A DNA stretch of 24,000 nucleotides from Leucobacter sp. UCMA 4100 (lineage in GTDB: Bacteria; Actinomycetota; Actinomycetes; Actinomycetales; Microbacteriaceae), in assembly GCF_027853335.1 (NCBI RefSeq), contig NZ_JAFEUS010000002.1:1014514-1038513 (forward strand). The letters are read 5' to 3'. The position numbers were made by a program, and so were the translations under genes. Below the pieces are notes generated by a model that searched no databases, was not told the origin of the DNA, and saw nothing but the letters and a program-made list of their open reading frames with translations. Below, in pieces: positions 1,976 through 17,570 of this stretch. Position 1 is the stretch's first letter, and the number at the start of each line of letters is the position of its first letter.

Positions 1976-2920
1976 TTAGCCCGCGTGCACGCCAAGTCCG
2001 TTGAGAAGCCCTGCGCGCAGGTCAGTGAAGCTGCGAGCGCCGCGGTCTCTCGGCCGTTCGCCGGCGACCGTCACGTAGCGCGCAATCGACGCGCTCGTGC
2101 GTTCGGGGCCGCCCTCAGCGCCACCGATGAACTCGGCCGCCCGCGCGGGGCCAAGCGCCCCGATGCCCGAGCTCGAACCGAGCGCGACAACCCGCGGCTG
2201 CGGGGCCTTCGCTTGTTCCCGCGAACGCTCGTCGAGCAGGTTGCGCAAGAGCAGCACGTGGTCGGCGAGGTAAATTGCTTCTTCGACGTCGTGCGTCACG
2301 AGCACAATGGTCGTTGGCTGCGCACGGTGAATGTCGAGCAGTAGGTCGTGCATCTTGAGCCGCGTGAGTGCGTCGAGCGCGCCAAACGGTTCGTCGAGCA
2401 GCAGCACCCGCGGGTTTCGGGCGAGCGCCCTCGCAAGCGAAACGCGCTGCGCCATGCCGCCCGAGATCTCGCTCGGCCGCTGCTTGGCGGCGTGCGCCAA
2501 GCCAACGAGGTCGAGCAGTTCTGCGACGCGCTTCGTCGCCTCGCGGCCGCGCACTCCCCGCGGAAGCCCCAGCGCAACATTGTGCTCAATCGTGCGCCAT
2601 GGCAGCAGTCGCGGTTCCTGAAACGCGATCGCGGTCGTCTCGTCGTGTGCCCTGATCGCTTCGCCATCGATGCGGATCGCTCCCGCCGTCGGCACATCAA
2701 GTCCGCCGATGAGCCGCAAGAGCGTCGATTTGCCGCATCCCGAGGGCCCGACGATCGCGATGATCTCGCCCGCCTCAACGTCGAGCGTCACGTCGCTCAG
2801 CACCGTGCGGGCGCCGTGCTTGCCTACGAAGGTACGCTCAACGTCGGTGATCTGCACGCGCCCGGCGGCGCTTACTGGCGCCCCGTTCGGGCTCGCTGTG
2901 GTGGGGGCTTCTTGCAACAT
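1976..2920 (-). CDS. ABC transporter ATP-binding protein (SsuB/TauB-like) with an extra C-terminal tail
   Basis: Walker A GPSGCGKST, signature ISGGMAQRVSLARAL, Walker B LLLDEPFGALD and an H-loop VTHD. About 70-80 residues lie beyond the normal end of the NBD. Confidence 0.9.
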   Translation of the reverse strand: MLQEAPTTASPNGAPVSAAGRVQITDVERTFVGKHGARTVLSDVTLDVEAGEIIAIVGPSGCGKSTLLRLIGGLDVPTAGAIRIDGEAIRAHDETTAIAFQEPRLLPWRTIEHNVALGLPRGVRGREATKRVAELLDLVGLAHAAKQRPSEISGGMAQRVSLARALARNPRVLLLDEPFGALDALTRLKMHDLLLDIHRAQPTTIVLVTHDVEEAIYLADHVLLLRNLLDERSREQAKAPQPRVVALGSSSGIGALGPARAAEFIGGAEGGPERTSASIARYVTVAGERPRDRGARSFTDLRAGLLNGLGVHAG

Positions 2921-2987
2921 ACGTATTAAGATGCCCGACCCTGGGCGGGCCGTCGAATGCAGGTGTCACACGGTGTCACCTGACGTA

Positions 2988-3011
2988 ACACGGCGAAACA
3001 TTTCGCGGTGT
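2988..3011. promoter_or_regulatory. 24-bp imperfect palindrome ACACGGCGAAAC/ATTTCGCGGTGT upstream of the sulfonate-type ABC operon
   Basis: 10 of 12 positions pair. It lies 68-91 nt upstream of the ATPase start at 2920. GGTGTCAC repeats flank it at 2962-2969 and 2972-2979, with GGTGTGAC at 3007-3014. Confidence 0.3.
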
Positions 3012-3130
3012 GACGCGAGTGGCGCGCGAGTTTAGCGGGGTTCGCGTTCGGGGCTACGCTGCTACACCCGGCCTCGCGCACACTGGGCCGATGGCAGCCT
3101 GCGTCTGGGCTTCTCCTGCGCCCCGAGGCT

Positions 3131-3218
3131 CGCCGAGTGAGTATGCGTTCGCCGACAGAGCATCGAATACACGCGTTTTTCATGCTTAGTCGGCAAAACG
3201 ATACTCAGTCGGCGAAAC
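3131..3218. repeat. Copy A of an ~84-bp element with terminal inverted repeats, at the left island border
   Basis: CGCCGAGTGAGTAT (3131-3144) is the inverted repeat of ATACTCAGTCGGCG (3201-3214) with 1 mismatch. It has an internal tandem 19-bp unit: atgcttagtcggcaaaacg / atactcagtcggcgaaacg. It shares exact 18-mer and 19-mer blocks with copy B. Confidence 0.8.
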
Positions 3219-3281
3219 GGTTTTCATTTAGCACCGTATTGTGGGTCCCAGAAGCCCTTACAACCTCGTCATAACACTGCT

Positions 3282-4070
3282 TTAAGAGCTGAGATGTGAG
3301 AGGAACTGTTTCAGATGTGGCGACTGCGGTTCTGCGATCATTCTCGTTGCTTCTCCGAGTTCTTCGATCACCCCGTCACGCATGAAAGCGATTCGATCTG
3401 CAACGTGTTGCGCAAAGTGCATCTCGTGCGTCACCACAATCATTGTCATGCCCTCCTCAGCAATCTCACGCATAACATGCAGTACTTCACCGACAAGCTC
3501 AGGGTCAAGAGCAGAGGTTGGTTCATCGAACAGCATGAGTTTTGGCTCCATAGCAAGGGCACGCGCAATGGCCACCCTTTGCTGCTGACCACCTGAGAGC
3601 TGCGAAGGATAGTGATTTGCCCGGTTTGAAAGACCCACCCGTTCGAGATACTGCAGCGCTTTTTTCTTGGCGTCAGAGCCCGAAATGCGCAGTACTTTCT
3701 TCAGGCCAATCGTGACGTTTTCAACGACTTTGAGGTGCGGGAACAGGTTGAAGTGTTGAAACACCATTCCAATGTGCCGCCTAGACGCTGCAAGCTCTTT
3801 GTCAGTCGCTTCGTACAAGCGCCCTCTGTCCTCGGTCGCGCCTACCAAACGCCCGTCGACAGAGACATATCCTTTATCGAGTGGCTGCAAGGCGTTAATC
3901 GTGCGCAGCAACGTCGACTTGCCAGAGCCTGAGGCGCCAATAAGGCACAGCACCTCGCCCTCGTGAACATCGAGGTTCACGCCGCGAAGAACGTGGTTTT
4001 CACCAAAACTGACATGAATGTTGTTCATCTCAACAAGTGGGGTTTGCCAATCGATAGTCATACCGTTCAC
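3282..4070 (-). CDS. Polar amino acid ABC transporter ATP-binding protein (GlnQ/HisP-like)
   Basis: Walker A GASGSGKST, signature LSGGQQQRVAIARALAMEP and Walker B LMLFDEPTSALDPE. The ORF opens with GTG at 4070 (a GTGA overlap with the permease stop). The ATG at 4061 has GAGGA 9 nt upstream and is the likelier start. Confidence 0.9.
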   Translation of the reverse strand: MNGMTIDWQTPLVEMNNIHVSFGENHVLRGVNLDVHEGEVLCLIGASGSGKSTLLRTINALQPLDKGYVSVDGRLVGATEDRGRLYEATDKELAASRRHIGMVFQHFNLFPHLKVVENVTIGLKKVLRISGSDAKKKALQYLERVGLSNRANHYPSQLSGGQQQRVAIARALAMEPKLMLFDEPTSALDPELVGEVLHVMREIAEEGMTMIVVTHEMHFAQHVADRIAFMRDGVIEELGEATRMIAEPQSPHLKQFLSHLSS

Positions 4071-4987
4071 TCCTCAGAAACTGACAGTTGTGCCGCGCCA
4101 GCGACGCTTCGGGACATACGTTTTTCAAGGATTCTCTGGCCAAGAGAGGCAACAAACACCAGAATCAAGTACCAGGCAGAGACAACCAAAAGCAGCGGCA
4201 CCACTTGAAAGTTCTGGCCGTAAATGCGTTGAGCCATAGTGAGCAGATCGCCGCCGCCGATCACCGCGACAAGGGAGCTTGCTTTCAAGAGCAAGATGAA
4301 GAGGTTACCGGTGGCAGGGATGATCACTCGAATTGCCTGCGGCATCACAATGTGGATCATCGCCTGCTGCCTTCTCATTCCAAGCGCTTGCGCCGCCTCA
4401 GCCTGGCCGGGAGAGACCGCGAGTAAACCGCCTCGAATAATCTCGGCCATAAATGCTGATTCGTGAAGGCCAAGACCAATGATTGAGGCGGTAAAACCGG
4501 TGATGAAAGTATTGGTGTCAATTGAGAGTCCGAACACCGGGGGAAACCCGAGAACAATATTCGGCGCAAAAAGCGCCAGGTTGTAGGTGAAGAGTAACAG
4601 CACGAGGAGCGGCAGGCCGCGAAAGAACCCGACGTAGCCCTTCGCGAAGAGCTGCAGTACAGGGTTCTCTGATCGCATCATCATGGCGACCATAAACCCG
4701 ATAATGATAGCGACCGTCACACCGATCAGCGAGAGCTGGATCGTCTTCCAGAGCCCCTGCATAATCATCGGAGAGAAAAAGAACTCCCCGAAAACATCCC
4801 ACTGGACCCTCGGGTTTGATGCAAATGCCCAGGCAGCCCAACCGACCAGACCCACAATTGCGGCGCCCACAATCCAGTGATCCGGCCGTTGGCGTTTGGT
4901 CGGTGCTTGCGCAGCATCGATGCCTGCCCAGTTAATCTGCCGAGTCACAGGGGTACGACGAGTTTCTACAGACTTTCCGTTGTCCAT
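4067..4987 (-). CDS. Polar amino acid ABC transporter permease (His/Glu/Gln/Arg/opine family)
   Basis: 306 aa with an EAA-loop region GQAEAAQALGMRRQQAMIHIVMPQA and multiple TM segments. An AAGGGAAG RBS lies before the ATG. Confidence 0.85.
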   Translation of the reverse strand: MDNGKSVETRRTPVTRQINWAGIDAAQAPTKRQRPDHWIVGAAIVGLVGWAAWAFASNPRVQWDVFGEFFFSPMIMQGLWKTIQLSLIGVTVAIIIGFMVAMMMRSENPVLQLFAKGYVGFFRGLPLLVLLLFTYNLALFAPNIVLGFPPVFGLSIDTNTFITGFTASIIGLGLHESAFMAEIIRGGLLAVSPGQAEAAQALGMRRQQAMIHIVMPQAIRVIIPATGNLFILLLKASSLVAVIGGGDLLTMAQRIYGQNFQVVPLLLVVSAWYLILVFVASLGQRILEKRMSRSVAGAAQLSVSEE

Positions 4988-5012
4988 TGTCTTCCCTTTC
5001 TCAAAGTTGCGA

Positions 5013-5041
5013 GGGAGGGGCCGTCTGCTGCGACCCCTCCC
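5013..5041 (-). terminator. Intercistronic GC hairpin GGGAGGGG-N13-CCCCTCCC just after the SBP gene
   Basis: Perfect 8-bp stem starting 7 nt downstream of the SBP stop (5048) and upstream of the permease RBS. There is no U-tract, so it is more likely an attenuator or mRNA-stability element than a full terminator. Confidence 0.45.
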
Positions 5042-5047
5042 ATGCCG

Positions 5048-6043
5048 TTATTCGAGCCCGCAGGCTCCACAGAGCTCTGGATCTTCAAGCGGTCGAGTCT
5101 CACCAAGATTGATTCCCGGTTCGAGCAGGGCAAGCTCTTCAAGGTTCCATTTCTTCAGCGCCTCCTGGTATGTCCCATCGGCGATAGCAGCTTCAAGGGC
5201 GCCTGTGAGGGCTTTGGCAAGGTCGGTTTCGTCTTTGCCTACGACAATCCCGTGATAGTCAGACGGAATGAGCGGGCTCGCGAAGCTTTCCACTTCTCTT
5301 CCCTGCGACTCCTGCCACCGTGCAGTCGCCAGGCTGGTAAAGGTTGCATTAATCTGGCCTGCTTCAAGAGCCGTTGACACATCTGCTGCAGAAGGAAACT
5401 CGGTCACGGCAAGCGGGGGCAAACCATTTGCTTCGCAGTTTTGTGAGAATACCTCTGCGTTCTGCACAAAGTTCGTGGCAGTCTGCACCCCTGCTTTCAC
5501 ACCGCACATACTTAGCGGGTTCTCAGTAACTCCCGCCGGGTTAGCTTTCATGACCATCAGGCCGTTTGCCCCGTAAGCGTTATCGACGAAGGTCACAACC
5601 TTTCGCCGTTCTTCGTTGTCAGAAATACACTCCATGGCACCTTGAAACCTGCCGCTTTGCACGCCAGGAATCAAACCGTCAAATTGCAGGGCCTCCTGCC
5701 GAATTTCGACCCCAAGGTGCGGCTCCATGACCTTGAGAATGTCATGATTGTAGCCAGCAATATCACCCGTCGAGTTATCGACGAAGTCACACGGCGGGTA
5801 GCCAGGATCAGTTCCTATGATGAGGACCCCCGACTTCTGCACCTCTTCCGGGAGAAGCTGAAATAGCTCGTTATCGCCCTGGTCGGTCTTCGGAGATTGC
5901 GCACCGTTGCCTCCCGTCGATCCGCATCCGGTCACAGCGAGCGCTACGGCGGCCGCGGCACCGACGATACTGAGCCAGCTCCGTGCTTTACGTGATGATC
6001 TTTCAAACATGATGGTTCCTTTTCTTGTCGCGTTCCTCGTCAT
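5048..6043 (-). CDS. Amino acid ABC transporter substrate-binding lipoprotein (family 3 SBP)
   Basis: Signal peptide with lipobox LAVTGCGS and a periplasmic-binding-protein-like body, adjacent to the PAAT permease and ATPase. The likely true start is the ATG at 6010 (MFERSS…), preceded by AAGGAA. The 6043 ATG has no RBS. Confidence 0.75.
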   Translation of the reverse strand: MTRNATRKGTIMFERSSRKARSWLSIVGAAAAVALAVTGCGSTGGNGAQSPKTDQGDNELFQLLPEEVQKSGVLIIGTDPGYPPCDFVDNSTGDIAGYNHDILKVMEPHLGVEIRQEALQFDGLIPGVQSGRFQGAMECISDNEERRKVVTFVDNAYGANGLMVMKANPAGVTENPLSMCGVKAGVQTATNFVQNAEVFSQNCEANGLPPLAVTEFPSAADVSTALEAGQINATFTSLATARWQESQGREVESFASPLIPSDYHGIVVGKDETDLAKALTGALEAAIADGTYQEALKKWNLEELALLEPGINLGETRPLEDPELCGACGLE

Positions 6044-6055
6044 TGAGGTGAGCGA

Positions 6056-6754
6056 CTAGATGAGTTGTTTACTGAGTTCTACGACGTGCTTACGAATGAA
6101 CACGCCATAGGTTTGTAGGTCTTGTTCAGAAAGCCGAAACGATGGGCCGATCACGCTAATCGCGGCCACAATTTCTCCAGACGAATTCATGATGGGGGCT
6201 GCAACAGCCGCGGCATCGGGCTCGACTCTGGTCGCTCGAGAACACGCAAAGCCCCGCGGCCCCACGTCGTTCTCGAGCGCGGCACCGATCGCGGTGCCCG
6301 TAGTATCGATCGTTTTACCAGCCCAGCTCGCGTGCCGAATAGCGCGCGAGCTTTCAACCTGCCGCAAGTAAACGGCTTCCCGCTTACCCGAAATAACCGC
6401 CAGGTAGGCTGTCTCGCCGGTGTACTCAGAAATTGCTTTCAGATGCTTCTCGGCCAACTCATACAGCGAGTACCGGCTCAGCGTTTGAGCCCCGAGTTGC
6501 ACGAGTACGCGGCCGGGCCGGTAGGTTGCAGAGTCACCACGAAAAAGAAATTCAGCGCGTTCAAGCGTTTTCAGATGCCGCGCAACCGTCGTAACCGGAA
6601 GCATGCTGCTGCGCGCTACATCACTGAGAGTGAGCCCCTCATCAGATTCCGCGACTATGCGCAAAATATCGAGCGCCTTATCAACACTGTTTCTCGTTTT
6701 CTGTTCGTCGTCGAGCGTGGTCATGCCCGACAGCGAATCCTTGATCTGCTCCAT
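6056..6754 (-). CDS. IclR family transcriptional regulator
   Basis: N-terminal wHTH SVDKALDILRIVAESDEGLTLSDVARSSMLPVTTVARHLKTLE followed by an IclR-type effector domain. 232 aa. Confidence 0.8.
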   Translation of the reverse strand: MEQIKDSLSGMTTLDDEQKTRNSVDKALDILRIVAESDEGLTLSDVARSSMLPVTTVARHLKTLERAEFLFRGDSATYRPGRVLVQLGAQTLSRYSLYELAEKHLKAISEYTGETAYLAVISGKREAVYLRQVESSRAIRHASWAGKTIDTTGTAIGAALENDVGPRGFACSRATRVEPDAAAVAAPIMNSSGEIVAAISVIGPSFRLSEQDLQTYGVFIRKHVVELSKQLI

Positions 6755-6805
6755 TGCAACCCCAATACACCGTTGTATGTTTGTCGTTGTTCGTGTGAAA
6801 GTGTT

Positions 6806-8233
6806 CTACTCCATAAAGTCTTCCCTGAACCCTTTCCGTTCAATGATCTTCGCAGTGTCTTCGGGGGAAAGGTACGCTTCAAACTGAAGATTTTCGAACC
6901 CAGGATGGGGCAGGTCAGCCTGCTCAGGAAACCCAGCGAGTGGTCTCGTGGCATCGATCCCTACCTTTGCAGTGAGCGTGTCTGAGCCGATGGGCGTGAA
7001 GAACTGTTTTGCGCTCGGGTCCATGCGGATGCCCTTCATGCTTTCTAACCTGACGGTGTCAACGTCGGCTTGTACCCGAACATCAGCAGCCCAGAGCACC
7101 CTTCCTGTATCGAGCACATCAATATCGTCATCGACAACGATCACGTTTTTTAAGAAGTGATCGGTTGCGAAGGCGGCAAGAATAGCTTGTTTTCCGTCGC
7201 CTTCTTTGCGTTTTTTCACCGAAATATAGGCGCTAAACGAACCACCATGAAACGGGATTCGAGCAGCAACAGCGCCAGGAACCGATCGGCGCACTCCCTC
7301 GAGCAGACGCGCCTCACGGCCAGGGTAGAGCCAAAGACACAGGTGCTCAGCGTGAGTAGGGTGAAGGTCAAGAAAGATCGGGTTGCGGCGGTGCGTTACC
7401 GCGGTAATCGTACATACCGGAGCTTTTGCTTCACCGTAGTGATACGAGAACTCTCCGAATGGCCCCTCACTCAACATGTCGTGCGGGTCGACGACACCTT
7501 CGAGTATCATCTCTGCTTCAGCCGGCACCGGTAGATCTACCGAAACTGCCGGTGTCACCCGTAACGATTCGTTCAGTAGCCCTCCAACGATCTCGTGACT
7601 ATCGACGGCGACAGTATTTTTCACCTGTGAACCCACCAGGTATGCCGGGTGATGCCCGATGATAACCGCAATGGGAACCTTCTCTTGGCGTTCTCGTGCC
7701 GCCGCAAAAATTCGGCCGAGGTCATGGTCAGGAGCAGCGTTTACCGTGATCGTATGAGAGCCCGTCACCATCATGCGGTACATGCCGGTATTGAGTTTTC
7801 CGGTTCTCGGATCACGAGCGAGCACTACCCCAGCCGTAATGTACTCACCAGCGTCTGACTTAGAATGCTGCGCAAAGGGCATAGCTTTGAGGTCAATTTC
7901 GGCCTCTTGCAACACCACTTCTTGGCTTGCAGCATTCGATACGGTTATGGGCTCAGGGAGTTGCTCGAATGGCAGCTGGATAGCCCTTTCGACAAGCTCG
8001 CCTTTGTCAATACCGAGCGAGCGGGCGAGCCGCGCGCGGGTACCAAACGTTCCCATCACCACAGGCCACGGGCTGCCAGCAACCGATTCGAACTGCACCG
8101 CTGGCGCCCCATAAGGTTCGAGGGCCTTAACAACAGACAGGATCTCCGGCCCCTTGGTTACTGGCCGACGCACCCTCAAGAGTTCGCCGCTCTCTTCGAG
8201 CGCCGAAAGGTATTCCTGAAGATTCGGGTTCAT
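6806..8233 (-). CDS. UbiD-family (prFMN-dependent) reversible decarboxylase
   Basis: 475 aa. It has a UbiD-like N-terminus (…LEESGELLRVRRPV…) and an EGPFGE motif (E-x4-E) corresponding to the catalytic Glu loop of Fdc1/UbiD enzymes. An ATGA overlap joins it to the upstream lyase gene, and ubiX is in the same operon. Confidence 0.85.
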   Translation of the reverse strand: MNPNLQEYLSALEESGELLRVRRPVTKGPEILSVVKALEPYGAPAVQFESVAGSPWPVVMGTFGTRARLARSLGIDKGELVERAIQLPFEQLPEPITVSNAASQEVVLQEAEIDLKAMPFAQHSKSDAGEYITAGVVLARDPRTGKLNTGMYRMMVTGSHTITVNAAPDHDLGRIFAAARERQEKVPIAVIIGHHPAYLVGSQVKNTVAVDSHEIVGGLLNESLRVTPAVSVDLPVPAEAEMILEGVVDPHDMLSEGPFGEFSYHYGEAKAPVCTITAVTHRRNPIFLDLHPTHAEHLCLWLYPGREARLLEGVRRSVPGAVAARIPFHGGSFSAYISVKKRKEGDGKQAILAAFATDHFLKNVIVVDDDIDVLDTGRVLWAADVRVQADVDTVRLESMKGIRMDPSAKQFFTPIGSDTLTAKVGIDATRPLAGFPEQADLPHPGFENLQFEAYLSPEDTAKIIERKGFREDFME

Positions 8234-9768
8234 GATGCATTGCCTACGAGTGGTACCGCTCCATGAGGAAGGTACGATCCGCTCAAAATATCGGCCGCCA
8301 CAGCCTCCATATCGTTCGCAAGGGCCCGATCTTGATCGAGGTACTGTGAACGGGCACGAACAAGCTCAAACACCGGCTTTAACGCTGGGGCGCTCGGGCC
8401 ACCATCACGCATTTCTGACCCCTGGGCTGCTGCCAAAAGCTCGATTGCTACAACGTAGGCCGCGTTTTGGGCCATCGGCTGCAGTCGAACACCGCCGTGC
8501 GTCGCCATACTGACGTGATCTTCTTGCCCAGCTGAGGTCGGAATGCTGTCAACGCTGGTGGGAAAGGCCTTGGTCTTATTTTCAGCGACGAGCGCTGCTG
8601 AGGTGACCTGCGCCATCAGAAACCCTGAGTTCAGTCCGGCGCCTTCAACCAAGAACGGCGGTAGCCCAGACATCGAGGTATCAACGATCATTGCCGTGCG
8701 CCGCTCAGTGATCGAACCGATTTCGCACAGCGCCATCGCGATCATATCTGAGGCAAAGGCAACCGGCTCACCGTGAAAGTTGCCTCCAGAAAGCACGACT
8801 TCGTCGTCTGGAAAGACGAGAGGATTATCTGAAACTGCGTTGGCCTCACGCTCCAAAACTCGCGCTGCTTGTTCTAGCAGGTCGAGCGAAGCGCCAAAAA
8901 CCTGGGGCATGCAACGCAAGCTGTACGGATCTTGTAGCCTGCGGCCTTCGAATTCGTGAGCAAGAATCTCGCTTTCAGCGACGAGGTTTCGAAGCGAAGC
9001 TGCAACGGTTATCTGGCCAATCTGACCACGAATCGCTTGGATGCGAGCGTCAAGTGCTTCCTGCCGCCCCGCTGTTGCTTCGAGGGTCAGCGCCCCCGCT
9101 GTAATCGCGGCGTTCAACACCTTTTCTGCGGCAAAAAGCCCTTGAAGCGCAAGCGCTGTCGAAGCTTGAACACCGTTGATGAGGGCAACACCCTCTTTCG
9201 GGCCCAGCTCAGCCGGATCAAGGCCAACACTGCGCAGACCCTCAACGGCGTTATAGATTTTGCGCCCAATACGCACCTGCCCGTGCCCTGTCATGACGCC
9301 TGCCATGTGCGAGAGAGGTGCCAGGTCGCCAGAGGCCCCGACAGAACCCTGACTTGGAATCACCGGAAGCACATCGTGGTTGATCATGTCGAGCAGCAGT
9401 TGGACAACTTCAAGTCTTAGACCCGAATGTCCCTGGCACAATGACAGCAGCTTTACCACCATCATTCCCCGCACCGTTGCCTCGCCAAACGATGGGCCGA
9501 CACCTACCATATGAGACTCGACAACTCTGCGCTGGAGTTCGAGTAGCTCGTCTTTGCTAATACGCCGATCAGCGAGTTTGCCAAACCCTGTGTTGACACC
9601 GTAGATCACGTCGCCGCGAGCAACCAGATCGGTGATGACCTTGTGAGCTCGTTCAATACGTTCTCTGGTTTCGTTCGAGAGTTCAACCGTGACCGGGCCT
9701 TCAAAAGGCAAGCGCAAGTCATCGAGTGTTGCTTTTGCCGTGCTAATAAGAATGTGTTGAAACATCAT
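8230..9768 (-). CDS. hutH: MIO-dependent ammonia-lyase, histidine ammonia-lyase type
   Basis: Contains the GSVGASGDLAPLSH (Ala-Ser-Gly MIO triad). YGVNTGFG, KEGVALINGVQAST, QDPYSLRC, GGNFHGEPVA and PTSAGQEDHVSMA all align without gaps to Pseudomonas putida HAL as recalled from memory. The selectivity position reads S-H (ESHMVG) as in HAL. I moved the start from the track's 9807 to the ATG at 9768, which has a GAAAGGA RBS and avoids an overlap with ubiX. Confidence 0.85.
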   Translation of the reverse strand: MMFQHILISTAKATLDDLRLPFEGPVTVELSNETRERIERAHKVITDLVARGDVIYGVNTGFGKLADRRISKDELLELQRRVVESHMVGVGPSFGEATVRGMMVVKLLSLCQGHSGLRLEVVQLLLDMINHDVLPVIPSQGSVGASGDLAPLSHMAGVMTGHGQVRIGRKIYNAVEGLRSVGLDPAELGPKEGVALINGVQASTALALQGLFAAEKVLNAAITAGALTLEATAGRQEALDARIQAIRGQIGQITVAASLRNLVAESEILAHEFEGRRLQDPYSLRCMPQVFGASLDLLEQAARVLEREANAVSDNPLVFPDDEVVLSGGNFHGEPVAFASDMIAMALCEIGSITERRTAMIVDTSMSGLPPFLVEGAGLNSGFLMAQVTSAALVAENKTKAFPTSVDSIPTSAGQEDHVSMATHGGVRLQPMAQNAAYVVAIELLAAAQGSEMRDGGPSAPALKPVFELVRARSQYLDQDRALANDMEAVAADILSGSYLPHGAVPLVGNAS

Positions 9769-9794
9769 TGTCCTTTCTGAAGTGTGAAGATCAT

Positions 9795-10355
9795 TTATTC
9801 GGTCCACCGTGTCACCAGGGTTGTCTCGATACCGAACTGGTCGAGCATTCTGCCCACCCCTTCGTCGATGACCTCGTCGATGCTGGTCGGCCTGTTATAG
9901 AACGCTGGCACCGGGAGGCACACCGTTGCGCCTGCGAGTGTCACGGTCTCCATATTTCTGATGTGAATCAGGTTGAGCGGTGACTCGCGCAGCAGGAGCA
10001 CAAGCGGCCTCCGTTCTTTCAACGTCACATCGGCGGCCCTCGCGAGGAGTGTTGTTCCCCCACCGTTCGCGATGTCTGCGATTGATCGCGCCGAGCACGG
10101 GGCCACGACCATTCCCCGGGTCTGAAACGACCCTGATGCGATACTCGCAGCCATGTCTCTCGGGGAGTGGACGTAACTCGCGAGGTTTTTCACCTCTTTC
10201 GCGGTCATATCAAGCTCATATGAAAGCGTCAGCTCGGCCATTTTGGAAATCACGAGGTGCGACTCAATCTCAAGCTCACGAAGGACCTCAAGCAGCCTCA
10301 CCCCGTACTGAACGCCGCTCGCACCACTGATACCAACAACAATGCGGTTCGTCAT
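9795..10355 (-). CDS. ubiX: UbiX flavin prenyltransferase (prFMN synthase)
   Basis: 186 aa. RIVVGISGASG…, SGSFQTRGMVVAPCS, LKERRPLVLLLRE and PVPAFYNRP are collinear with E. coli UbiX. Confidence 0.9.
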   Translation of the reverse strand: MTNRIVVGISGASGVQYGVRLLEVLRELEIESHLVISKMAELTLSYELDMTAKEVKNLASYVHSPRDMAASIASGSFQTRGMVVAPCSARSIADIANGGGTTLLARAADVTLKERRPLVLLLRESPLNLIHIRNMETVTLAGATVCLPVPAFYNRPTSIDEVIDEGVGRMLDQFGIETTLVTRWTE

Positions 10356-11878
10356 GACGCACGCACCTTGATATTCACCGATTTCAGTTCAACGAAGCTC
10401 GCGAGTTCGTCAGCCGACTCTTCTCGGCCGACACCGCTCTTGCCCATACCGCCGAACGGTGAGCCAGGATAGTGCCGATTAGCATCGTTCACCCAGATAT
10501 ATCCGGCCTGTATCGATTCAGAGACTCGCAGCGCCCGATCAAGATCATGGGTCCATACAGCCGCTGAAAGACCATACTCCGTCTCGTTGGCAAGCCGCAC
10601 AGCCTCGGCCTCATCTGCAAACGGCATCACAATGGCAACGGGTCCAAACACCTCTTGAGAGAACAAACTCATCTGCTCGGTCACACCGGTTAGCAAAGTG
10701 GGTTTGAGGTAGTAGCCCCCGGCATGTTGTTCTTGCGAGCCCTCTCCCGTCGCTTTATCTTCGGAACCTGACCCACCGGCCACCAGCGTTGCACCCTCGT
10801 GAACGGCCTGGTCAATCATGCCGCGCACCGTTCGAAGGTGCTCGAGTGAGACGACTGGCCCCATTTCAGTGTTCTCTTCATACGCCGGCCCGACACGAAG
10901 CCCCTCCATTTTGCGGCTTAGCGCAGTGACGACCTCAGCGAAGATCGTTTGTTGAACGAGAATTTTGGCGGTCGACTGGCAGCTTTGGCCTGCGCTCACC
11001 GTGAAGCTCAGCCCGGCAAAGGCTGCCTCAGTTGCCTCAGCGACATCGCAATCATCAAACATCACAAACGGGTTCTTGCCACCGAGTTCCGCGCTAAAGT
11101 GCTTCACAGTGCCGCTCGTCGAAAGCCGTTCTTGAATCGCAAGCGCGGTTCTATCACTGCCGGTAAAAGCGATACGCTTCACTTCAGGATGGGTCACCAA
11201 TGCATCTCCTGCTTCAGCGCCTCCACCAAGAATATTGACCAGCCCATCAGGCAGCGTTCCTTTCAACACTGCACCGAGCGCGAGTGTCGAAAGCGGCGTC
11301 TGTGCAGAGGTTTTAATCACGAGCCCATTACCCGCCATGAGCGGAAAAATGGCCCCTGCAAGAGCGAAAAGCAACGGGTGATTGTACGCAATAATTTTTC
11401 CCACAACACCATATGGCTCTGCTGAGATGAGCGAAAAACCGTCACGGTGAGGCTTCGTAAAACGTCCGTGTTGTGCAGCAGCAGTGCCTGGCCACTCAGC
11501 GAGGTATTTCAAGGCGAGCCCGACATCCCGACGAGTTGAAGCAAGCGGGTTACCGCTATCAACAGATTCAAGAAAAGCAAAATCTTCAGCTAGCGCCGAG
11601 AATTTCTCGCGTACTTGCGAAAACACGAGTGCTCGTTCCGAAGGAGTACGGGCCCGCCACTCGCGCTGAGCAACCAGAGCCGCATCAACCGCAACGCCGA
11701 TCTCTTCTCGGTTGCTCTCAGGAGCCGAGGTGAATTCAAGACCCGTCGAAGGATTAAACACCGGTTTATTCTCAACGGGTTCAACCCAGCCGCCGTTCAC
11801 GAAGTTCTTTGGCACCCCGTCAGCCCAAAAAGTACGCAGCACCAGATCAATATCTGTCTGCCTCTGTTGTTCGCTCAT
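10352..11878 (-). CDS. NAD(P)+-dependent aldehyde dehydrogenase
   Basis: 508 aa with the catalytic Glu motif ELGGKNP, the Cys motif SAGQSCQS, and FTGS and PFGG(M)GKSG motifs. ATGA overlaps occur at both ends. Confidence 0.85.
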   Translation of the reverse strand: MSEQQRQTDIDLVLRTFWADGVPKNFVNGGWVEPVENKPVFNPSTGLEFTSAPESNREEIGVAVDAALVAQREWRARTPSERALVFSQVREKFSALAEDFAFLESVDSGNPLASTRRDVGLALKYLAEWPGTAAAQHGRFTKPHRDGFSLISAEPYGVVGKIIAYNHPLLFALAGAIFPLMAGNGLVIKTSAQTPLSTLALGAVLKGTLPDGLVNILGGGAEAGDALVTHPEVKRIAFTGSDRTALAIQERLSTSGTVKHFSAELGGKNPFVMFDDCDVAEATEAAFAGLSFTVSAGQSCQSTAKILVQQTIFAEVVTALSRKMEGLRVGPAYEENTEMGPVVSLEHLRTVRGMIDQAVHEGATLVAGGSGSEDKATGEGSQEQHAGGYYLKPTLLTGVTEQMSLFSQEVFGPVAIVMPFADEAEAVRLANETEYGLSAAVWTHDLDRALRVSESIQAGYIWVNDANRHYPGSPFGGMGKSGVGREESADELASFVELKSVNIKVRAS

Positions 11879-13182
11879 CCGCGCATACCTCCATCGTTCA
11901 CCGTGCGTAAGCGTGAGAAAACTGAAGTCTGAATACTCTGGCCAGCTTCTTTAAGATGCACCTCGAGTGGGTGCTCGTCGGTGTTCACCCCGTTCATCTG
12001 AGCAACGACCAGGTCAACCAGAAAATCACCAGCGACCGGAGCCGTTTTAAATTGGTTTCCGCTCGTACCGATCGCTATGAAGACACCTGGCTGATCAGTC
12101 TTATCAAAAATCGGTAGCCAGTCATCAGTGACGTCATAGAGACCGGCAACGCCCTTAGGAATCGCTGTAAGCGCAAGCGAAGGAATGCGTCTTGCAGCTC
12201 GCCCGGCCTGGCGATACCAACCATCGCGAGTTGCATCGCTCCGATATTTATTTGAGTCAGAAATGAGCTCTTCACCGTCAACCGGGTCTCCCGATGAACC
12301 GACCATGAACCCATCTTTGCCCTCTGGCCGAAAGTTAATACCAAGGTCACCGTCAACAATATGGGCCGGGTTTTTGATTTCTTCAGAGGCCGTTACATGG
12401 TGTAGCTCTTGGCGAATAATGCGCTGCCCAACAGTAAAGTCATTACCCACGCCCAGAAGCCGGTTAACTTCTATCGAGGCGGGTCCAGCCGCATTAACGA
12501 CGTTCGCCGACTCGAGCACATTGCCATCCTGTAAGGTCAACTGCCAGTTTCCACCTGCACCGCGAGAAGCGCCCACAACGCGTTGCCCCATAACAAAGTG
12601 TGCGCCAAGCCTGCGAGCTTTTTGCGCAAGATTCTGTGCTGCGAGAGCGGGGTCAGCAACGTACCCTGAGCTCGCGGTATGCAACGCCCGTTCGATCAGG
12701 CCGTCGGGTTCTTTCCAAAACTCTTCGGAGTCGGGGTGAGCCGGCGGCCCGAACTTCTCAAGGTCTGCCCATGGCAGTTCTTCTTGCAACGTATCGTGGC
12801 CAAGGAACGAAAAGCCAATGCCATTTGCTTCGAGCACCGCAGCATACTTATCGAGGGTCTCGTTGTGGTCTTCAAGAATGAACGTGCCACATTGGACAAA
12901 CTCAGCAGCAGCTTCACTCGCAGGAACCCCAACAAAATCGCGCCAGTTCTTCCACGCAAATACTGACTCATGCGACATAAGACTGCTTGCAAAGTCACCG
13001 GCATGAACACGAACGATTCCAGCCGAAGCGCTCGTCGACCCAAACCCCGGCGTGGGGTTCGCGTCGATGACGGCAACGCTCAAGCCACGTTGAGCCGCGG
13101 CCACCGCGATTGACGTGCCGACGATTCCGGCCCCGATAATCGCGAGGTCAACACTATGACCTCTGAGATGAGCAGTTTGCAT
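11875..13182 (-). CDS. FAD-dependent oxidoreductase, DAO (D-amino-acid/sarcosine/glycine oxidase) family
   Basis: Dinucleotide fold DLAIIGAGIVGTSIAVAAAQRG…VAVID followed by GSTSASAGIVR. The start was trimmed from 13320 to the ATG at 13182, which has GGAGGGG 4 nt upstream. The 46 upstream codons cross the promoter region and look non-coding. Confidence 0.75.
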   Translation of the reverse strand: MQTAHLRGHSVDLAIIGAGIVGTSIAVAAAQRGLSVAVIDANPTPGFGSTSASAGIVRVHAGDFASSLMSHESVFAWKNWRDFVGVPASEAAAEFVQCGTFILEDHNETLDKYAAVLEANGIGFSFLGHDTLQEELPWADLEKFGPPAHPDSEEFWKEPDGLIERALHTASSGYVADPALAAQNLAQKARRLGAHFVMGQRVVGASRGAGGNWQLTLQDGNVLESANVVNAAGPASIEVNRLLGVGNDFTVGQRIIRQELHHVTASEEIKNPAHIVDGDLGINFRPEGKDGFMVGSSGDPVDGEELISDSNKYRSDATRDGWYRQAGRAARRIPSLALTAIPKGVAGLYDVTDDWLPIFDKTDQPGVFIAIGTSGNQFKTAPVAGDFLVDLVVAQMNGVNTDEHPLEVHLKEAGQSIQTSVFSRLRTVNDGGMRG

Positions 13183-13216
13183 TTCCCCTCCATCGCCTTT
13201 GACTGAATACAGGAAA

Positions 13217-13279
13217 ATTAACAAACTCTTCCCACCATTTGGCAATAGTTTCCGCCTAGCGGGAAACAAAATTATTTCC
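13217..13279 (-). promoter_or_regulatory. Putative island-operon promoter (TTGCCA-17-GTTAAT on the minus strand) with an adjacent GTTTCC/GGAAAC palindromic operator candidate
   Basis: The -35 is at 13245-13240 and the -10 at 13222-13217. The overlapping palindromes GTTTCC-N8-GGAAAC (13248-13267) and GGAAAC-N7-TTTCC (13262-13279) lie immediately upstream of the -35. Confidence 0.3.
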
Positions 13280-13331
13280 TGGGTAGCTACCAAAGCTAGG
13301 AAGGCCCGGCGGCTCCTCAAGAACTAGGGTT

Positions 13332-13414
13332 CGCTCAGTGAGTATGCGTTCGCCGGCTGAACATGAAAACGCGTCGATTCGATACTCAGTCGGCGAAACA
13401 ATGCTCAGTCGGCG
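13332..13414. repeat. Copy B of the ~84-bp TIR element, at the right island border
   Basis: GTGAGTATGCGTTCGCCG (13338-13355) and GATACTCAGTCGGCGAAAC (13381-13399) are identical to blocks in copy A. A second 19-bp unit, atgctcagtcggcg, lies at 13401-13414. The outer 6-7 nt of the left arm are degraded at the island junction. Confidence 0.8.
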
Positions 13415-16271: not shown

Positions 16272-17501
16272 CTACGCCTTCAGCCCCTCGACGAGCGGCA
16301 CCAGGGCGTCAACGAGCGCGCGAGCGGTCTCGCCCTTCGAGCCCTCGGCCTGACCCACGAGTGAGCCTCCCGCTTCGAGCAACCACAGGTGGTTGTGCTC
16401 CTTCTCAAAGCCCTGGCTCCACCCGACCGCGTTCACCGCGAGCAGATCGCAGCCCTTGCGCGCAAGCTTCGCACGGCCCCGCTCGAGCAGTTCTTCATCA
16501 TTCGCGACCGTCTCAGCCGCAAAGCCAACGAGCACGGGCTTCGCCAGATTCGATGAGCCCCTGGCGTCGACGAGGCCCCGCAGAATATCGGGATTTTCGA
16601 CGAGATTCAGGTGCAGAGACTCGCCCTGATCCGCCTTGCGAAGCTTGCCATCGGCAACCTCGGCCACGCGGTAATCTGACACGGCCGCGGCCATAACGAT
16701 CGCGTCGGCGCTCGCGGCGAGCAGGTGCACCGCGGCCTCAAGCTCGGCGGTCGAGCCCACGCGCGAAACCTCGATCGACGAAGCCAACCCCTCAAGCAGC
16801 CGCTGCTCGATGTTCGCCGCGATGAGCGTCACCGCAGCACCGCGCCGCGCCGCCTCAGCCGCGACCTCGATGCCCTGCCTGCCGCTCGACCGATTGCCGA
16901 TAAAGCGCACCGGATCGATCGGCTCGCGGGTACCGCCCGCGGTCACGAGCACGCGACAGCCGGTGAGGTCTTGCGCGACCGAGCTGAGCGCCATCGCCCG
17001 CTCAAAAATCTGCTCGGGTTCGGTCATACGGCCGAGCCCGCTGTCGGTCCCGGTGAGTTCGCCCGCCTCAGGCCCCACGAAGTGCACGCCACGCTCGCGC
17101 AGCGTGTGCACATTCGCCTGGGTCGATGCGTGCTGCCACATCTCAGTGTGCATCGCGGGGGCCACGAGCACGGGAGCCTTCGAAGCGATGAGCGTGGTGC
17201 CGAGCAGGTCATCGGCAATGCCCGCCGCCATCTTTGCGAGCGTGTTCGCCGTGGCGGGAGCAACCACGATGAGGTCGGCCTCCTGCCCCAGCCGCACGTG
17301 CCGCACCTCGGGCACGTCTTCATGCACGCTCGTCGTGACGGGATTGCGGCTCAGCGCCTCCCACGTCGGCTTGCCAACAAACTCGAGCGCGTTCTCGGTC
17401 GGCACCACCGTGACCGTGTGCCCCGCCTTGACCATAAGCCGCACGAGATGCACCGTTTTGTAGGCCGCGATGCCGCCTGTGACTCCCACCACGATTTTCA
17501 T
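16272..17501 (-). CDS. coaBC: Bifunctional phosphopantothenoylcysteine decarboxylase / phosphopantothenate-cysteine ligase
   Basis: MKIVVGVTGGIAAYK flavoprotein N-domain with PAMHTEMW, then the CoaB domain (VTAGGTREPIDPVRFIGNRSSG, AAVSDYR). Start taken at the ATG at 17501. Confidence 0.9.
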   Translation of the reverse strand: MKIVVGVTGGIAAYKTVHLVRLMVKAGHTVTVVPTENALEFVGKPTWEALSRNPVTTSVHEDVPEVRHVRLGQEADLIVVAPATANTLAKMAAGIADDLLGTTLIASKAPVLVAPAMHTEMWQHASTQANVHTLRERGVHFVGPEAGELTGTDSGLGRMTEPEQIFERAMALSSVAQDLTGCRVLVTAGGTREPIDPVRFIGNRSSGRQGIEVAAEAARRGAAVTLIAANIEQRLLEGLASSIEVSRVGSTAELEAAVHLLAASADAIVMAAAVSDYRVAEVADGKLRKADQGESLHLNLVENPDILRGLVDARGSSNLAKPVLVGFAAETVANDEELLERGRAKLARKGCDLLAVNAVGWSQGFEKEHNHLWLLEAGGSLVGQAEGSKGETARALVDALVPLVEGLKA

Positions 17502-17570
17502 ACTCTCATCATTGCACCCGAAGCTGCCCGGCGGGTGATCACCCATCGAGAAGCGGTTACGATCGAGGGT

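Follow-up and report, generated by a model that had tools for sequence, protein, structure and literature searches.

A low-GC island of Leucobacter linking a histidine ammonia-lyase gene with ubiD and ubiX, and its possible role in supplying the histidine utilisation pathway

Examination of a 24,000-nucleotide stretch of the genome of Leucobacter sp. UCMA 4100 (termed the window) identified a low-GC island of approximately 10 kb holding nine genes, all on the minus strand and forming one unit (3282-13182). In order, these encode a DAO-family flavoenzyme (DAO), an aldehyde dehydrogenase (ALDH), UbiX, a histidine ammonia-lyase (HAL), a UbiD-family decarboxylase, an IclR-family regulator, and the solute-binding protein (SBP), permease and ATPase of an ABC importer. 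The GC content changes from 64% to 52% at the left edge of the island and from 49% to 68% at its right edge. The features identified were as follows:

3127..3214, no strand: imperfect repeat of about 90 nt, left copy bounding the island (direct-repeat families D1 and D2, by sequence comparison)
3282..4070, minus: ABC importer ATPase (PF00005)
4067..4987, minus: ABC importer permease (PF00528)
5048..6043, minus: family-3 SBP of a polar-amino-acid ABC importer, start codon uncertain (PF00497)
6056..6754, minus: IclR-family transcriptional regulator (PF09339, PF01614)
6806..8233, minus: UbiD-family prFMN decarboxylase (PF20695, PF01977, PF20696)
8230..9768, minus: MIO-dependent histidine ammonia-lyase of the HutH type, 512 aa (PF00221, E 3e-173)
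9795..10355, minus: UbiX flavin prenyltransferase, maker of prFMN (NF004685, 242.6 with a cutoff of 188)
10352..11878, minus: NAD(P)-dependent ALDH, aminoaldehyde/betaine-aldehyde-like (PF00171, E 6e-128)
11875..13182, minus: DAO-family FAD amine oxidase/dehydrogenase, 435 aa from ATG (PF01266, E 7.6e-50, full profile covered)
13328..13414, no strand: imperfect repeat of about 90 nt, right copy bounding the island (direct repeats, by sequence comparison)

Direct reading of the junctions showed that ATGA overlaps join HAL to ubiD and ALDH to ubiX, and that 26 nt separate the TAA of ubiX from the ATG of the lyase, with a GAAAGGA ribosome-binding site lying inside this gap. This confirmed the consecutive minus-strand arrangement of ubiX, lyase and UbiD genes that an earlier sequence-only reading of this DNA had described. 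The lyase/UbiX/UbiD set of that reading is real, with its frame being too narrow for a unit of nine genes; a further ATGA overlap, between the DAO and ALDH genes, is a junction missing from it. Its statement that hutU, hutI, hutG and hutF are absent from the window was borne out, as tblastn queries for hutU, hutI/F-like, M20 peptidase and HutD proteins gave no match in the window and Pfam scans of its flanking ORFs revealed no hut gene.

The lyase was identified as a bona fide histidine ammonia-lyase, as previously proposed, passing the cutoff of the hutH equivalog model TIGR01225 (619.7, cutoff 539.15). HMMER alignment to P. putida HAL (1GKM/1B8F; 455 bits) was nearly gap-free, with the catalytic, selectivity and other active-site residues of the latter all being kept. 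The motifs that had been noted in the sequence are present, namely the ASG triad, the blocks NGVQAST, QDPYSLRC, GGNFHGEPVA and QEDHVS (each opposite its P. putida counterpart) and the selectivity dipeptide S-H (ESHMVG), which lies opposite the S-H of P. putida HAL. HALs of the related gene clusters described below are 64-83% identical among themselves and 66-72% identical to actinobacterial HALs from outside such clusters, and were found to form no separate clade in a neighbour-joining tree built without bootstrap. As judged by sequence comparison, the cluster HAL is no specialised paralogue and is not distinct from other actinobacterial HALs. Given the conserved P. putida HAL residues and the lack of a separate clade, its substrate is probably plain histidine.

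UbiX also exceeded the cutoff of TIGR00421 (225.7, cutoff 108.9), while the UbiD-family protein exceeded that of TIGR00148 (307 bits, cutoff 245) and carries the EGPFGE catalytic loop reported earlier. Its nearest solved structure is HmfF (6H6V; 244 bits, 37% identity), with AnInD the second-best match (172 bits), followed by VdcC (147 bits), UbiD (142 bits), AroY (130 bits), Fdc1 and TtnD (both about 80 bits) and HudA (53 bits). Among NCBIfam models VdcC was the second-best match (260 bits), with the BagN/FevL model giving 103 bits (cutoff 1000). The sequence-only reading had drawn on Fdc1 and suggested placing the protein within its family; in the comparisons above the protein lies nearest to HmfF and InD, which take carboxylates off rings, and not to Fdc1. 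Residues Y264, H291, T293, H294, W301, R309, I402 and M404 (window numbering) are invariant in and peculiar to its clade, throughout which the position of HmfF Arg331 is occupied by Ser, Ala or Gly. Furoate-type substrates are thus not indicated, and by its sequence the protein represents a distinct subfamily within the HmfF/InD cluster. An assigned substrate of another kind among close homologues had been named as counter-evidence to the earlier proposal; no assigned substrate was found among these homologues. AnInD has itself been placed in the HmfF cluster (PMC8988006), and tree position is no strict predictor of substrate class among UbiD proteins (PMC7976604).

AnInD (7P9Q, indole-3-carboxylate) and HudA/PA0254 (pyrrole-2-carboxylate) are likewise prFMN decarboxylases of N-heteroaromatic ring carboxylates, although neither is linked to amino-acid catabolism and HudA is distant from the window protein. 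With HudA, conversion reached 1.3% for imidazole-4-carboxylate and was nil for the 2-carboxylate (PMC7976604); this weak turnover shows that imidazole C4/C5 is open to prFMN chemistry. No description of an imidazole-carboxylate-specific UbiD was found in the literature searched.

A 435-aa database protein is 100% identical to the DAO of the window; the mechanical ORF runs on to a TTG at 13320. No NCBIfam model was matched by the DAO above its cutoff. Comparison of its AF2 model (pLDDT 93.8) identified glycine oxidase, L-proline dehydrogenase, SoxB, DMGDH and MSOX as the nearest folds, the MSOX structures being complexes with proline and thioproline. All the nearest folds oxidise a C-N bond, and their substrates are small amino acids, most of them secondary or cyclic. 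For the ALDH, the best NCBIfam and PDB matches were aminobutyraldehyde and betaine-aldehyde dehydrogenases, all under equivalog cutoffs. A DAO/MSOX-fold enzyme followed by an ALDH is the arrangement of the established PRODH/P5CDH and pipecolate oxidase/AASADH pairs, which the two genes here parallel. Bacteria are also able to oxidise thioproline, an adduct of cysteine with formaldehyde (PMC9814826); this oxidation is counted here with the pairs of a flavin amine dehydrogenase and an ALDH that act on cyclic imino acids. The window DAO differs from the enzymes of such pairs in sharing 20% identity or less with any characterised member.

The nearest NCBIfam models of the importer components were of the EhuC, TcyL, GlnP and HisQ types (permease) and the GlnQ, EhuA and HisP types (ATPase), all under cutoff. 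The window SBP is 52-54% identical to SBPs encoded adjacent to HAL in Micromonospora and Nocardioides, where HAL occurs with an SBP, permease and ATPase without UbiD, DAO or ALDH. With the SBPs of other UbiD clusters it shares just 29-35% identity.

The five-gene set for DAO, ALDH, UbiX, HAL and UbiD was found to recur in at least 15 actinobacterial loci, of Microbacteriaceae, Brevibacteriaceae, Propionibacteriales, Streptosporangiales, Actinomycetaceae and Ornithinimicrobiaceae, with gene order constant in all except one. HAL and UbiD adjoin in every locus examined, DAO and ALDH accompany the set in 14 of 15 loci, and an IclR orthologue adjoins the block in most. The adjacency of HAL, UbiD and UbiX, which the earlier reading had put forward for checking, is therefore conserved in many genomes, and a functional coupling of HAL to the UbiD/UbiX pair is supported. 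A divergent locus (L022; UbiD 45% and DAO 37% identical to the window proteins) is rearranged and has a transporter of the MFS type, yet all five genes, IclR and urocanase are kept. The Brevibacterium locus L002 has a polyamine-type (PotD-type) ABC transporter, with genes for a TPP enzyme and a racemase-like protein after UbiD. Neither a paper linking UbiD with hut genes or HAL nor an account of this combination of genes was found in the literature searched.

When 15 related loci were inspected over a range of 10 kb from the block, hutU and/or hutI/hutF-like genes were found in ten. hutU was seen in eight loci, in seven of which it lies on the same strand and directly 3' of UbiD or its IclR. 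Downstream of UbiD or IclR, on the same strand, lie hutU and the genes for an M20 peptidase and for two amidohydrolases in L003, L005, L006, L008, L011/L015 and L017, and hut genes are also close by in L014, L018, L024 and L022. None were found within 10 kb in the Leucobacter, Propionicicella, Schaalia and Ornithinimicrobium loci. Set against the ten loci above, the absence of further hut genes is peculiar to this window. Genes for ETF alpha and beta adjoin the transporter in L003, L017, L018 and L024. The block resembles the canonical Hut pathway in its lyase, which has the characteristics of HutH, and in being contiguous with hutU and hutI/hutF-like genes in most related loci. It differs in that DAO, ALDH, UbiX and UbiD genes are interleaved with hutH and in that the lyase gene is the sole hut gene of the window. 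This linkage, with hutU mostly on the same strand after UbiD/IclR, indicates that urocanate appears to be bound for urocanase.

Our preferred interpretation, held tentatively and with rather less than even confidence, is that the island may constitute an inducible 'upper' catabolic pathway supplying the ordinary Hut pathway, with spinacine as the simplest candidate substrate. The ABC transporter would import a histidine derivative in which one of the carbons of the imidazole ring bears a one-carbon substituent, attached through CH2-N. The DAO-family flavoenzyme would oxidise the C-N bond of this substituent, its electrons probably passing to ETF in some hosts, and hydrolysis of the imine would expose an imidazole carbaldehyde. 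The ALDH would convert this to an imidazole ring carboxylate, which UbiD, with prFMN made by UbiX, would strip as CO2 in a reaction of the type catalysed by HmfF and InD. HAL would then deaminate the resulting L-histidine or, alternatively, may act one step earlier, with UbiD then yielding urocanate; in either case urocanate would proceed to urocanase and the remaining Hut steps. The constant position of HAL between ubiX and ubiD, and its coupling to ubiD, is also consistent with a HAL step immediately ahead of UbiD.

Spinacine is the irreversible Pictet-Spengler adduct of histidine and formaldehyde and, on purely chemical logic, would be the simplest candidate needing exactly these steps (spinacine to 5-formyl-His, to 5-carboxy-His, to His and CO2). 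It arises spontaneously from histidine and formaldehyde, and every mouse tissue examined contained it at detectable levels (PMC9814826). The literature searched yielded no account of its breakdown by microbes. To our knowledge, spinacine is not established as an abundant nutrient. HmfF/HmfG (P. thermopropionicum HmfF; C. basilensis HmfFG), a 2,5-furandicarboxylate decarboxylase, is likewise a UbiD/UbiX pair encoded within a catabolic cluster. The HMF/furfural pathway shares with our proposal the logic of an oxidase, oxidation of an aldehyde to a carboxylate and CO2 removal by HmfF/HmfG (PMC6644310). In contrast, no hmf genes lie near the window cluster, where the partners are HAL, a DAO-fold amine dehydrogenase and, in related loci, hut genes, and Arg331, kept in HmfF, is replaced in the window UbiD clade.

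Counted against the upper-pathway model were the above points on spinacine as a nutrient and on its catabolism, the HAL position that equally suits action just ahead of UbiD, the loci with no hut genes nearby, the lack of a DAO gene within 10 kb in Brevibacterium L002, the position of the window SBP outside the SBP group of most clusters, and the loose tie of UbiD tree position to substrate class.

The sequence-only reading had instead proposed that HAL converts histidine to urocanate, which UbiD/UbiX would decarboxylate to 4-vinylimidazole and CO2 in the manner of PAL or TAL with Fdc1. Its HAL identification, UbiD/UbiX coupling and conserved adjacency stand; its specific decarboxylation chemistry was unsupported and is considered unlikely. 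This chemistry is possible, as an engineered E. coli with Fdc1, UbiX and HAL, in which Fdc1 decarboxylates urocanate, makes 17 mg/L 4-vinylimidazole (PMC7225752). An MIO ammonia-lyase is used or encoded alongside UbiX/UbiD both in the Fdc1/Pad1 systems and in the TAL-UbiX-UbiD trio of bagremycin/ferroverdin biosynthesis (NCBIfam families BagA, BagM and BagN), and the translational coupling of HAL and UbiD, the presence of UbiX and the limited guidance given by UbiD phylogeny also agree with such a route. However, the window UbiD is remote from Fdc1 and BagN and closer to HmfF, and its cluster is catabolic, hut-linked and equipped with additional DAO and ALDH genes. Decarboxylation of urocanate would rival urocanase inside one operon, hutU and the rest of Hut following UbiD in the same direction in seven loci with hut genes near three more, and would divert its substrate into a compound for which no fate is apparent. 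No role would be left for the DAO and ALDH, which are almost always present and are translationally coupled to ubiX in the window. Conversion of a vinyl group to an aldehyde is not expected of a DAO-fold amine oxidase. The importer and IclR indicate catabolism rather than production of a volatile, and the HAL is unspecialised. As the block usually lies beside normal histidine-degradation genes, an operon that converts some modified histidine to an intermediate of the normal pathway is more likely than one producing vinylimidazole.

The ALDH and UbiD could also serve to shorten the side chain of urocanate, which, once formed from histidine, would be cleaved to imidazole-4-carbaldehyde, oxidised by the ALDH to imidazole-4-carboxylate and decarboxylated by UbiD to imidazole and CO2, as in the conversion of ferulate to vanillin, vanillate and guaiacol. 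A start from plain histidine suits the canonical HAL, the vanillate logic has its counterpart in an ALDH acting ahead of a VdcC/HmfF-like UbiD, and HudA acts weakly on imidazole-4-carboxylate. Nevertheless, the required hydratase/lyase or C=C-cleaving oxygenase is absent, a DAO-fold amine oxidase misfits the cleavage step, urocanase is again rivalled, and the route would end at imidazole, a dead end and an inhibitor of prFMN enzymes (PMC7976604), making it highly improbable. Only slightly more credible, and still very doubtful, is a reading with the same enzyme logic as the upper pathway, in which the DAO would split a heteroaryl- or aryl-methyl group from the alpha-amine of an N-alkyl histidine, ALDH and UbiD would turn the aromatic aldehyde into arene and CO2, and HAL/Hut would take the histidine. 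This would account for the unmodified HAL, the HmfF/InD-like UbiD, the sarcosine-oxidase-like DAO and the hut linkage, but it leaves a free arene without downstream genes, lacks the economy of an intramolecular adduct, and sits poorly with a UbiD clade whose pocket residues do not indicate furoate-type substrates. We know of no natural histidine alkylated on its alpha-amine in this way, which also counts against it. Finally, the locus may be a mosaic of a hut module (HAL, importer and IclR) and an unrelated aromatic-amine/aldehyde detoxification module (DAO, ALDH, UbiX and UbiD) with a non-histidine substrate, an explanation judged rather improbable, a little less so than the preceding two. 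The enzyme families involved are all broad, and the Micromonospora and Nocardioides loci, with SBPs resembling that of the window, have HAL and importer alone. Against this, the HAL gene interrupts the ubiX/ubiD pair and is translationally coupled to ubiD, the five genes remain together across orders, despite rearrangement and other transporter types (MFS in L022, PotD-type in L002), and HAL was present in all of the UbiD-clade loci inspected.

A segment of the window at approximately 3130-13410 was found to have a GC content of 52-58%, against 64-69% outside it, and to hold nine co-directional genes on the minus strand. Two imperfect copies of an element of approximately 90 nt flank this low-GC island of 10.2 kb. 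The features are as follows.

3127-3214, left copy of the imperfect ~90-nt element
3282-4070, minus strand, ABC ATPase
4067-4987, minus strand, ABC permease
5048-6043, minus strand, family-3 solute-binding protein (SBP)
6056-6754, minus strand, IclR regulator
6806-8233, minus strand, UbiD-family decarboxylase
8230-9768, minus strand, histidine ammonia-lyase (HAL)
9795-10355, minus strand, UbiX (above the NF004685 cutoff)
10352-11878, minus strand, aldehyde dehydrogenase (ALDH)
11875-13182, minus strand, DAO-family FAD oxidoreductase (DAO)
13328-13414, right copy of the imperfect ~90-nt element

Direct reading of the junctions showed an ATGA overlap at each of DAO/ALDH, ALDH/ubiX and HAL/ubiD, with the ubiX stop codon separated from the HAL start codon by 26 nt and a GAAAGGA ribosome-binding site lying ahead of the latter. 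The statements of the sequence-only reading on genes, motifs and junctions were all correct when re-read; the genes that it listed stand, while the DAO gene, the IclR regulator and the importer had been left out of its frame. The two bracketing copies share 84% identity across 37 nt, followed by GATACTCAGTCGGCG units in repetition, and an inverted pair (CGCCGAGTGAGTATG ... GATACTCAGTCGGCG) lies inside both. Genes for an integrase or a transposase are absent. The repeats suggest horizontal gain of the island, or its insertion between two intergenic repeats of palindromic type. An Rfam scan identified no regulatory RNA, and a scan for promoters and terminators returned nothing above background. 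At the protein level the window shares 95-99% identity with Leucobacter chinensis NC76-1, and its DAO protein is identical to one in a Microbacteriaceae MAG.

The lyase was identified as a member of the HAL family by its domain (PF00221, E 3e-173) and by scores above cutoff for the hutH equivalog TIGR01225 (619.7, cutoff 539.15) and for NF006871 (647, cutoff 524). It aligned with P. putida HAL almost without gaps (455 bits), with the ASG triad of the MIO group (GSVGASGDLAPL) opposite GSVGASGDLAPL and the Ser-His selectivity pair (VESHMVG) opposite VLSHAAG; at this dipeptide TAL carries His-Leu and PAL carries Phe-Leu. The blocks YGVNTGFG, LINGVQAST, QDPYSLRC, GGNFHGEPVA and QEDHVSMA were likewise found opposite their P. 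putida counterparts free of gaps. The catalytic and binding residues of P. putida HAL (Tyr53, Asn195, Gln277, Tyr280, Arg283, Phe329 and Glu414) were found in the window lyase. The earlier description of a histidine-type MIO enzyme is thus upheld. Judged on its sequence, the window lyase is probably an ordinary histidase, with no sign of an altered substrate.

A genome scan identified eleven loci related to the block of DAO, ALDH, UbiX, HAL and UbiD, in Leucobacter, Brevibacterium, Labedella, Propionicicella, Microbispora, Microtetraspora (two), Schaalia, Sphaerimonospora and Ornithinimicrobium (two). By tblastn with the nine island proteins, the order DAO-ALDH-UbiX-HAL-UbiD was kept in ten of the eleven, with an IclR regulator and a polar-amino-acid ABC importer nearby in those ten. 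The same arrangement was also found in Curtobacterium, O. faecis and three metagenomic contigs, so that the adjacency of HAL, UbiD and UbiX seen in the window proved to be conserved in other genomes, with ubiX present in every related locus. Many other metagenomic matches to UbiD, DAO and HAL agree in the length of their longest contig, which suggests approximately 20 further co-occurrences. A divergent locus (L022) kept all five genes and the IclR regulator in a different order together with an MFS transporter, its proteins sharing 45% (UbiD), 57% (HAL), 45% (ALDH) and 37% (DAO) identity with those of the window. The gene content of related loci was taken from contig gene calls, as six-frame ORFs were swamped by long antisense ORFs at high GC.

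The one exception is a Brevibacterium MAG (L002, 1195-13993), in which an IclR regulator, a PotD/PhnS-type SBP, a TOBE ATPase and two permeases are followed by ALDH-UbiX-HAL-UbiD, while DAO is missing from the surrounding 10 kb. Downstream of its UbiD come genes for a racemase-like protein of the Asp/Glu type (PRK07475) and for a TPP enzyme (PRK08199), overlapping as if co-transcribed. The locus of Propionicicella superfundia (L012) encodes an EutA/arylmalonate-decarboxylase-like protein of the Asp/Glu racemase superfamily (2407-3183), whose gene separates the importer's SBP gene from its permease gene. A shared racemase step was considered and rejected, as the racemase-like proteins of these two loci are unrelated to each other.

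The canonical hut (histidine-utilisation) operon was not found in the 24-kb window, in which hutU (urocanase), hutI and hutF/hutG do not accompany hutH, bearing out the earlier observation. The argument that had been built on the missing hutU does not hold, this absence being an accident of the window, because hut genes were found within 10 kb of the block in 10 of 15 distinct loci. In Labedella (L003), Microbispora (L005), Microtetraspora (L006 and L011/L015), Sphaerimonospora (L008) and a metagenomic contig (L017), hutU, an M20 peptidase and two hutI/hutF-like amidohydrolases follow UbiD on the same strand, directly or past the IclR gene, with HutD additionally present in L017. Curtobacterium carries hutU 8 kb downstream of the block, two further loci (L018 and L024) carry hutF/hutI-like genes on its other side, and a urocanase lies 3 kb away in the divergent L022. 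The HAL is predicted to convert L-histidine to trans-urocanate, an activity to which the hutU genes adjoining the block in related loci lend indirect support, and in most hosts this urocanate is evidently destined for urocanase.

The window UbiD has the three domains of its family (UbiD_N, PF20695; UbiD, PF01977; UbiD_C, PF20696) and scored 307.3 against TIGR00148 (cutoff 244.85). Its comparison against solved structures gave the following scores.

Bit scores of solved UbiD-family structures to the window UbiD
HmfF (6H6V), 244 bits, 37% identity
AnInD, 172 bits
VdcC, 147 bits
E. coli UbiD, 142 bits
AroY, 130 bits
PhdA, 117 bits
Fdc1, 72-88 bits
TtnD, 79.5 bits
HudA, 53 bits

The enzyme is therefore nearest to HmfF and far from Fdc1. 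It fell well below the cutoffs of the VdcC model NF041204 (259.6, cutoff 650) and of the BagN/FevL model (102.7 bits, cutoff 1000), which represents a UbiD that works with a tyrosine ammonia-lyase, and by sequence it does not belong to the acrylic-acid branch of Fdc1, TtnD and BagN. It groups instead with those family members that act on ring carboxylates. AnInD has been assigned to the 'HmfF cluster', and an E(D)-R-E ionic network has been described for UbiD enzymes in the same paper (PMC8988006); a caveat comes from the HudA paper (PMC7976604), which states that where an enzyme sits in the tree is not fundamentally tied to its substrate class.

Approximately 60 database proteins with at least 50% identity to the window UbiD form a tight clade, the next identities being 45% or lower. 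Among 53 clade members, EGPFGE of the ionic network was invariant, and EGPFGEF[ST]Y[YH]YG and DLHPTHxEH[LR]CLWL[FY]PGREAR were essentially invariant. The network Arg, in NTGMYRMM, is present in the window protein. Residues invariant in the clade include His291, Thr293, His294, Trp301, Arg306 and Arg309 in the numbering of the window protein. Equivalents of HmfF His296 and Arg304 were conserved. The position of HmfF Arg331 was occupied by Ser (38), Ala (11) or Gly (4) in these 53 proteins, with Arg found in 24 of 55 outgroup sequences. Arg331 reportedly belongs to the distal-carboxylate site proposed for HmfF by Payne et al. 2019; this and the presumed functional roles of His296 and Arg304 served only as leads. 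Identity with HmfF as an FDCA decarboxylase was rejected given the 37% identity, the replacement of Arg331 and the lack of hmf genes nearby. No assigned function was found among the close database relatives; the JGI label 'FDCA decarboxylase 1' on some is automatic and has no backing from genomic context. A distant UbiD (41% identity to the window protein) was found in another uncharacterised context (L023, 3-9345), beside a TauD dioxygenase, an M20 peptidase, an ornithine-cyclodeaminase-like protein, a hydantoinase and an ATP-grasp protein, with no HAL, DAO or ALDH at that locus.

The DAO protein matched PF01266 over its full length. Its AF2 model (pLDDT 93.8) gave Foldseek neighbours at probability 1.00 and TM 0.70-0.75, namely glycine oxidase, L-proline dehydrogenase, SoxB, DMGDH and MSOX, the last including complexes with proline and thioproline. 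These enzymes oxidise C-N bonds in small, mostly secondary or cyclic, amino acids. Sequence identity to them was 20% or less, the best NCBIfam match was ThiO (59 bits, cutoff 251) and the best PDB sequence match reached 36 bits, so that NCBIfam, PDB and structural comparison placed the protein in no characterised subfamily of known substrate. Dimethylglycine dehydrogenase is ETF-linked, and SoxB is the beta subunit of heterotetrameric sarcosine oxidase. Genes for ETF alpha and beta were found directly beside the importer in four related loci (L003, 339-2026; L017, 126-2041; L018, 398-2118; L024, 1942-3662), and none in the window. In these four hosts, the arrangement points to a DAO-fold enzyme that acts as a dehydrogenase linked to ETF. 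The ALDH resembles aminoaldehyde and betaine-aldehyde dehydrogenases.

The sequence-only reading had proposed that HAL makes urocanate and that UbiD with UbiX decarboxylates it to 4-vinylimidazole. This is chemically possible, an engineered strain with HAL, Fdc1 and UbiX having yielded 17 mg/L of 4-vinylimidazole (PMC7225752), but it conflicts with the hut linkage, leaves DAO and ALDH idle and gains no support from the similarities of the UbiD. A vanillate-like shortening of the side chain to imidazole is a further rival, for which the needed cleavage enzyme is missing and which would end at a dead-end inhibitor. Substrates of the N-arylmethyl-histidine kind fit the enzyme logic, although we know of no such natural compound. 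That the block is a chance mosaic of two modules is contradicted by its interleaved and translationally coupled gene order and by the survival of the gene set through rearrangement and transporter swaps. Other substrates were rejected: N-tau-, N-pi- or N-alpha-methylhistidine (demethylation yields formaldehyde and requires no UbiD), histamine by way of imidazole-acetate (an arylacetate is no prFMN substrate, and HAL is left unexplained), ergothioneine or hercynine (a MIO-less ergothionase-type lyase is required) and opine-type N-alkyl histidines (cleavage yields keto acids, not aldehydes).

An ALDH product usable by UbiD would be a carboxylate on an sp2 carbon, aryl or vinyl; its aldehyde would derive from C-N oxidation and the end point would be histidine or urocanate. 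Taken together, these would call for a histidine with a CH2-N substituent on an imidazole carbon. Spinacine, the histidine-formaldehyde adduct, would satisfy them all in a single molecule, although this inferred choice of substrate could be wrong. Its C4-N5 bond would be oxidised to give 5-formyl-His, in parallel with pipecolate oxidase or proline dehydrogenase; ALDH would convert this to 5-carboxy-His, UbiD would release His and CO2, and HAL and Hut would complete the breakdown. The HAL and UbiD steps could come in either order, the UbiD substrate being 5-carboxy-histidine or 5-carboxy-urocanate. The HMF pathway, to which the closest relative HmfF belongs, follows the same logic of oxidation and then decarboxylation, and prFMN chemistry is feasible at imidazole C4/C5, not at C2 (PMC7976604). 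Spinacine arises spontaneously from histidine and formaldehyde and was present in all mouse tissues examined, while thioproline, the cysteine-formaldehyde adduct, is oxidised by bacteria (PMC9814826). Unlike in thioproline, the formaldehyde carbon of spinacine is bound to carbon, which would account for the use of a decarboxylase that cleaves C-C bonds; this carbon, irreversibly fixed by its C-C bond, would be lost as CO2. As a whole, a dedicated bacterial salvage and catabolism of spinacine, with a natural prFMN decarboxylase that would be the first dedicated to an imidazole-ring carboxylate, loss of C1 as CO2 and passage of histidine or urocanate to Hut, is a tentative proposal that we consider rather unlikely to be correct in full. 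It leaves the Brevibacterium variant unexplained. A literature search identified no microbial catabolism of spinacine.

Literature searches likewise found no report of UbiD or UbiX linked with HAL, hut or urocanase, and nothing relevant on prFMN with imidazole and HAL. All parts of the island are members of known families; what is rated as new is the UbiD subfamily and an accessory branch of histidine catabolism. To our knowledge, all characterised UbiD enzymes accept a narrow set of substrates, of which only a handful have been described. With a conserved hut-linked subfamily, the family would gain imidazoles as a substrate class and its first role in amino-acid catabolism, and prFMN enzymology would extend to imidazoles under either the spinacine or the 4-vinylimidazole model. 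The latter, if true, would be the first natural path to 4-vinylimidazole, a polymer monomer. The spinacine model, if true, would show how microbes dismantle an amino acid that formaldehyde has modified irreversibly, a standing question in formaldehyde toxicology and metabolite-damage repair. It would also explain the recruitment of a C-C-cleaving prFMN enzyme, given that hydrolysis is enough for the cysteine adduct. Culturable hosts include Leucobacter chinensis, Labedella populi, Microtetraspora and Curtobacterium.

Comparison of the window SBP with those of L012, L015-L018, L019 and L020 showed 52-54% identity to HAL-adjacent SBPs of Micromonospora and Nocardioides, at loci that lack UbiD, and only 29-35% to the SBPs of other UbiD clusters, which group among themselves at 44-76% identity. 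Compared with most UbiD clusters, the island thus appears to have exchanged its importer. A search on SBP specificity gave generic polar-amino-acid similarity only and pointed to no particular substrate. The Micromonospora and Nocardioides loci (L019, 8001-16424; L020, 8001-15754) hold a different HAL-linked module of HAL, SBP, permease, ATPase, a PcaD-like alpha/beta hydrolase and an M20 peptidase and/or a HutF-like amidohydrolase, with no hutU within 8 kb. Their HALs, from loci without UbiD, DAO or ALDH, share 66-72% identity with the block HALs, which share 64-83% with one another, and nest among them in an unbootstrapped neighbour-joining tree.

Elsewhere in the window, a plus-strand ORF of 530 aa (16725-18317) overlaps the CoaBC gene on the minus strand (16272-17546), with a TANGO2 domain match only in residues 283-450. 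The TANGO2 gene probably starts near 17573, the remainder of the ORF being a high-GC artefact.
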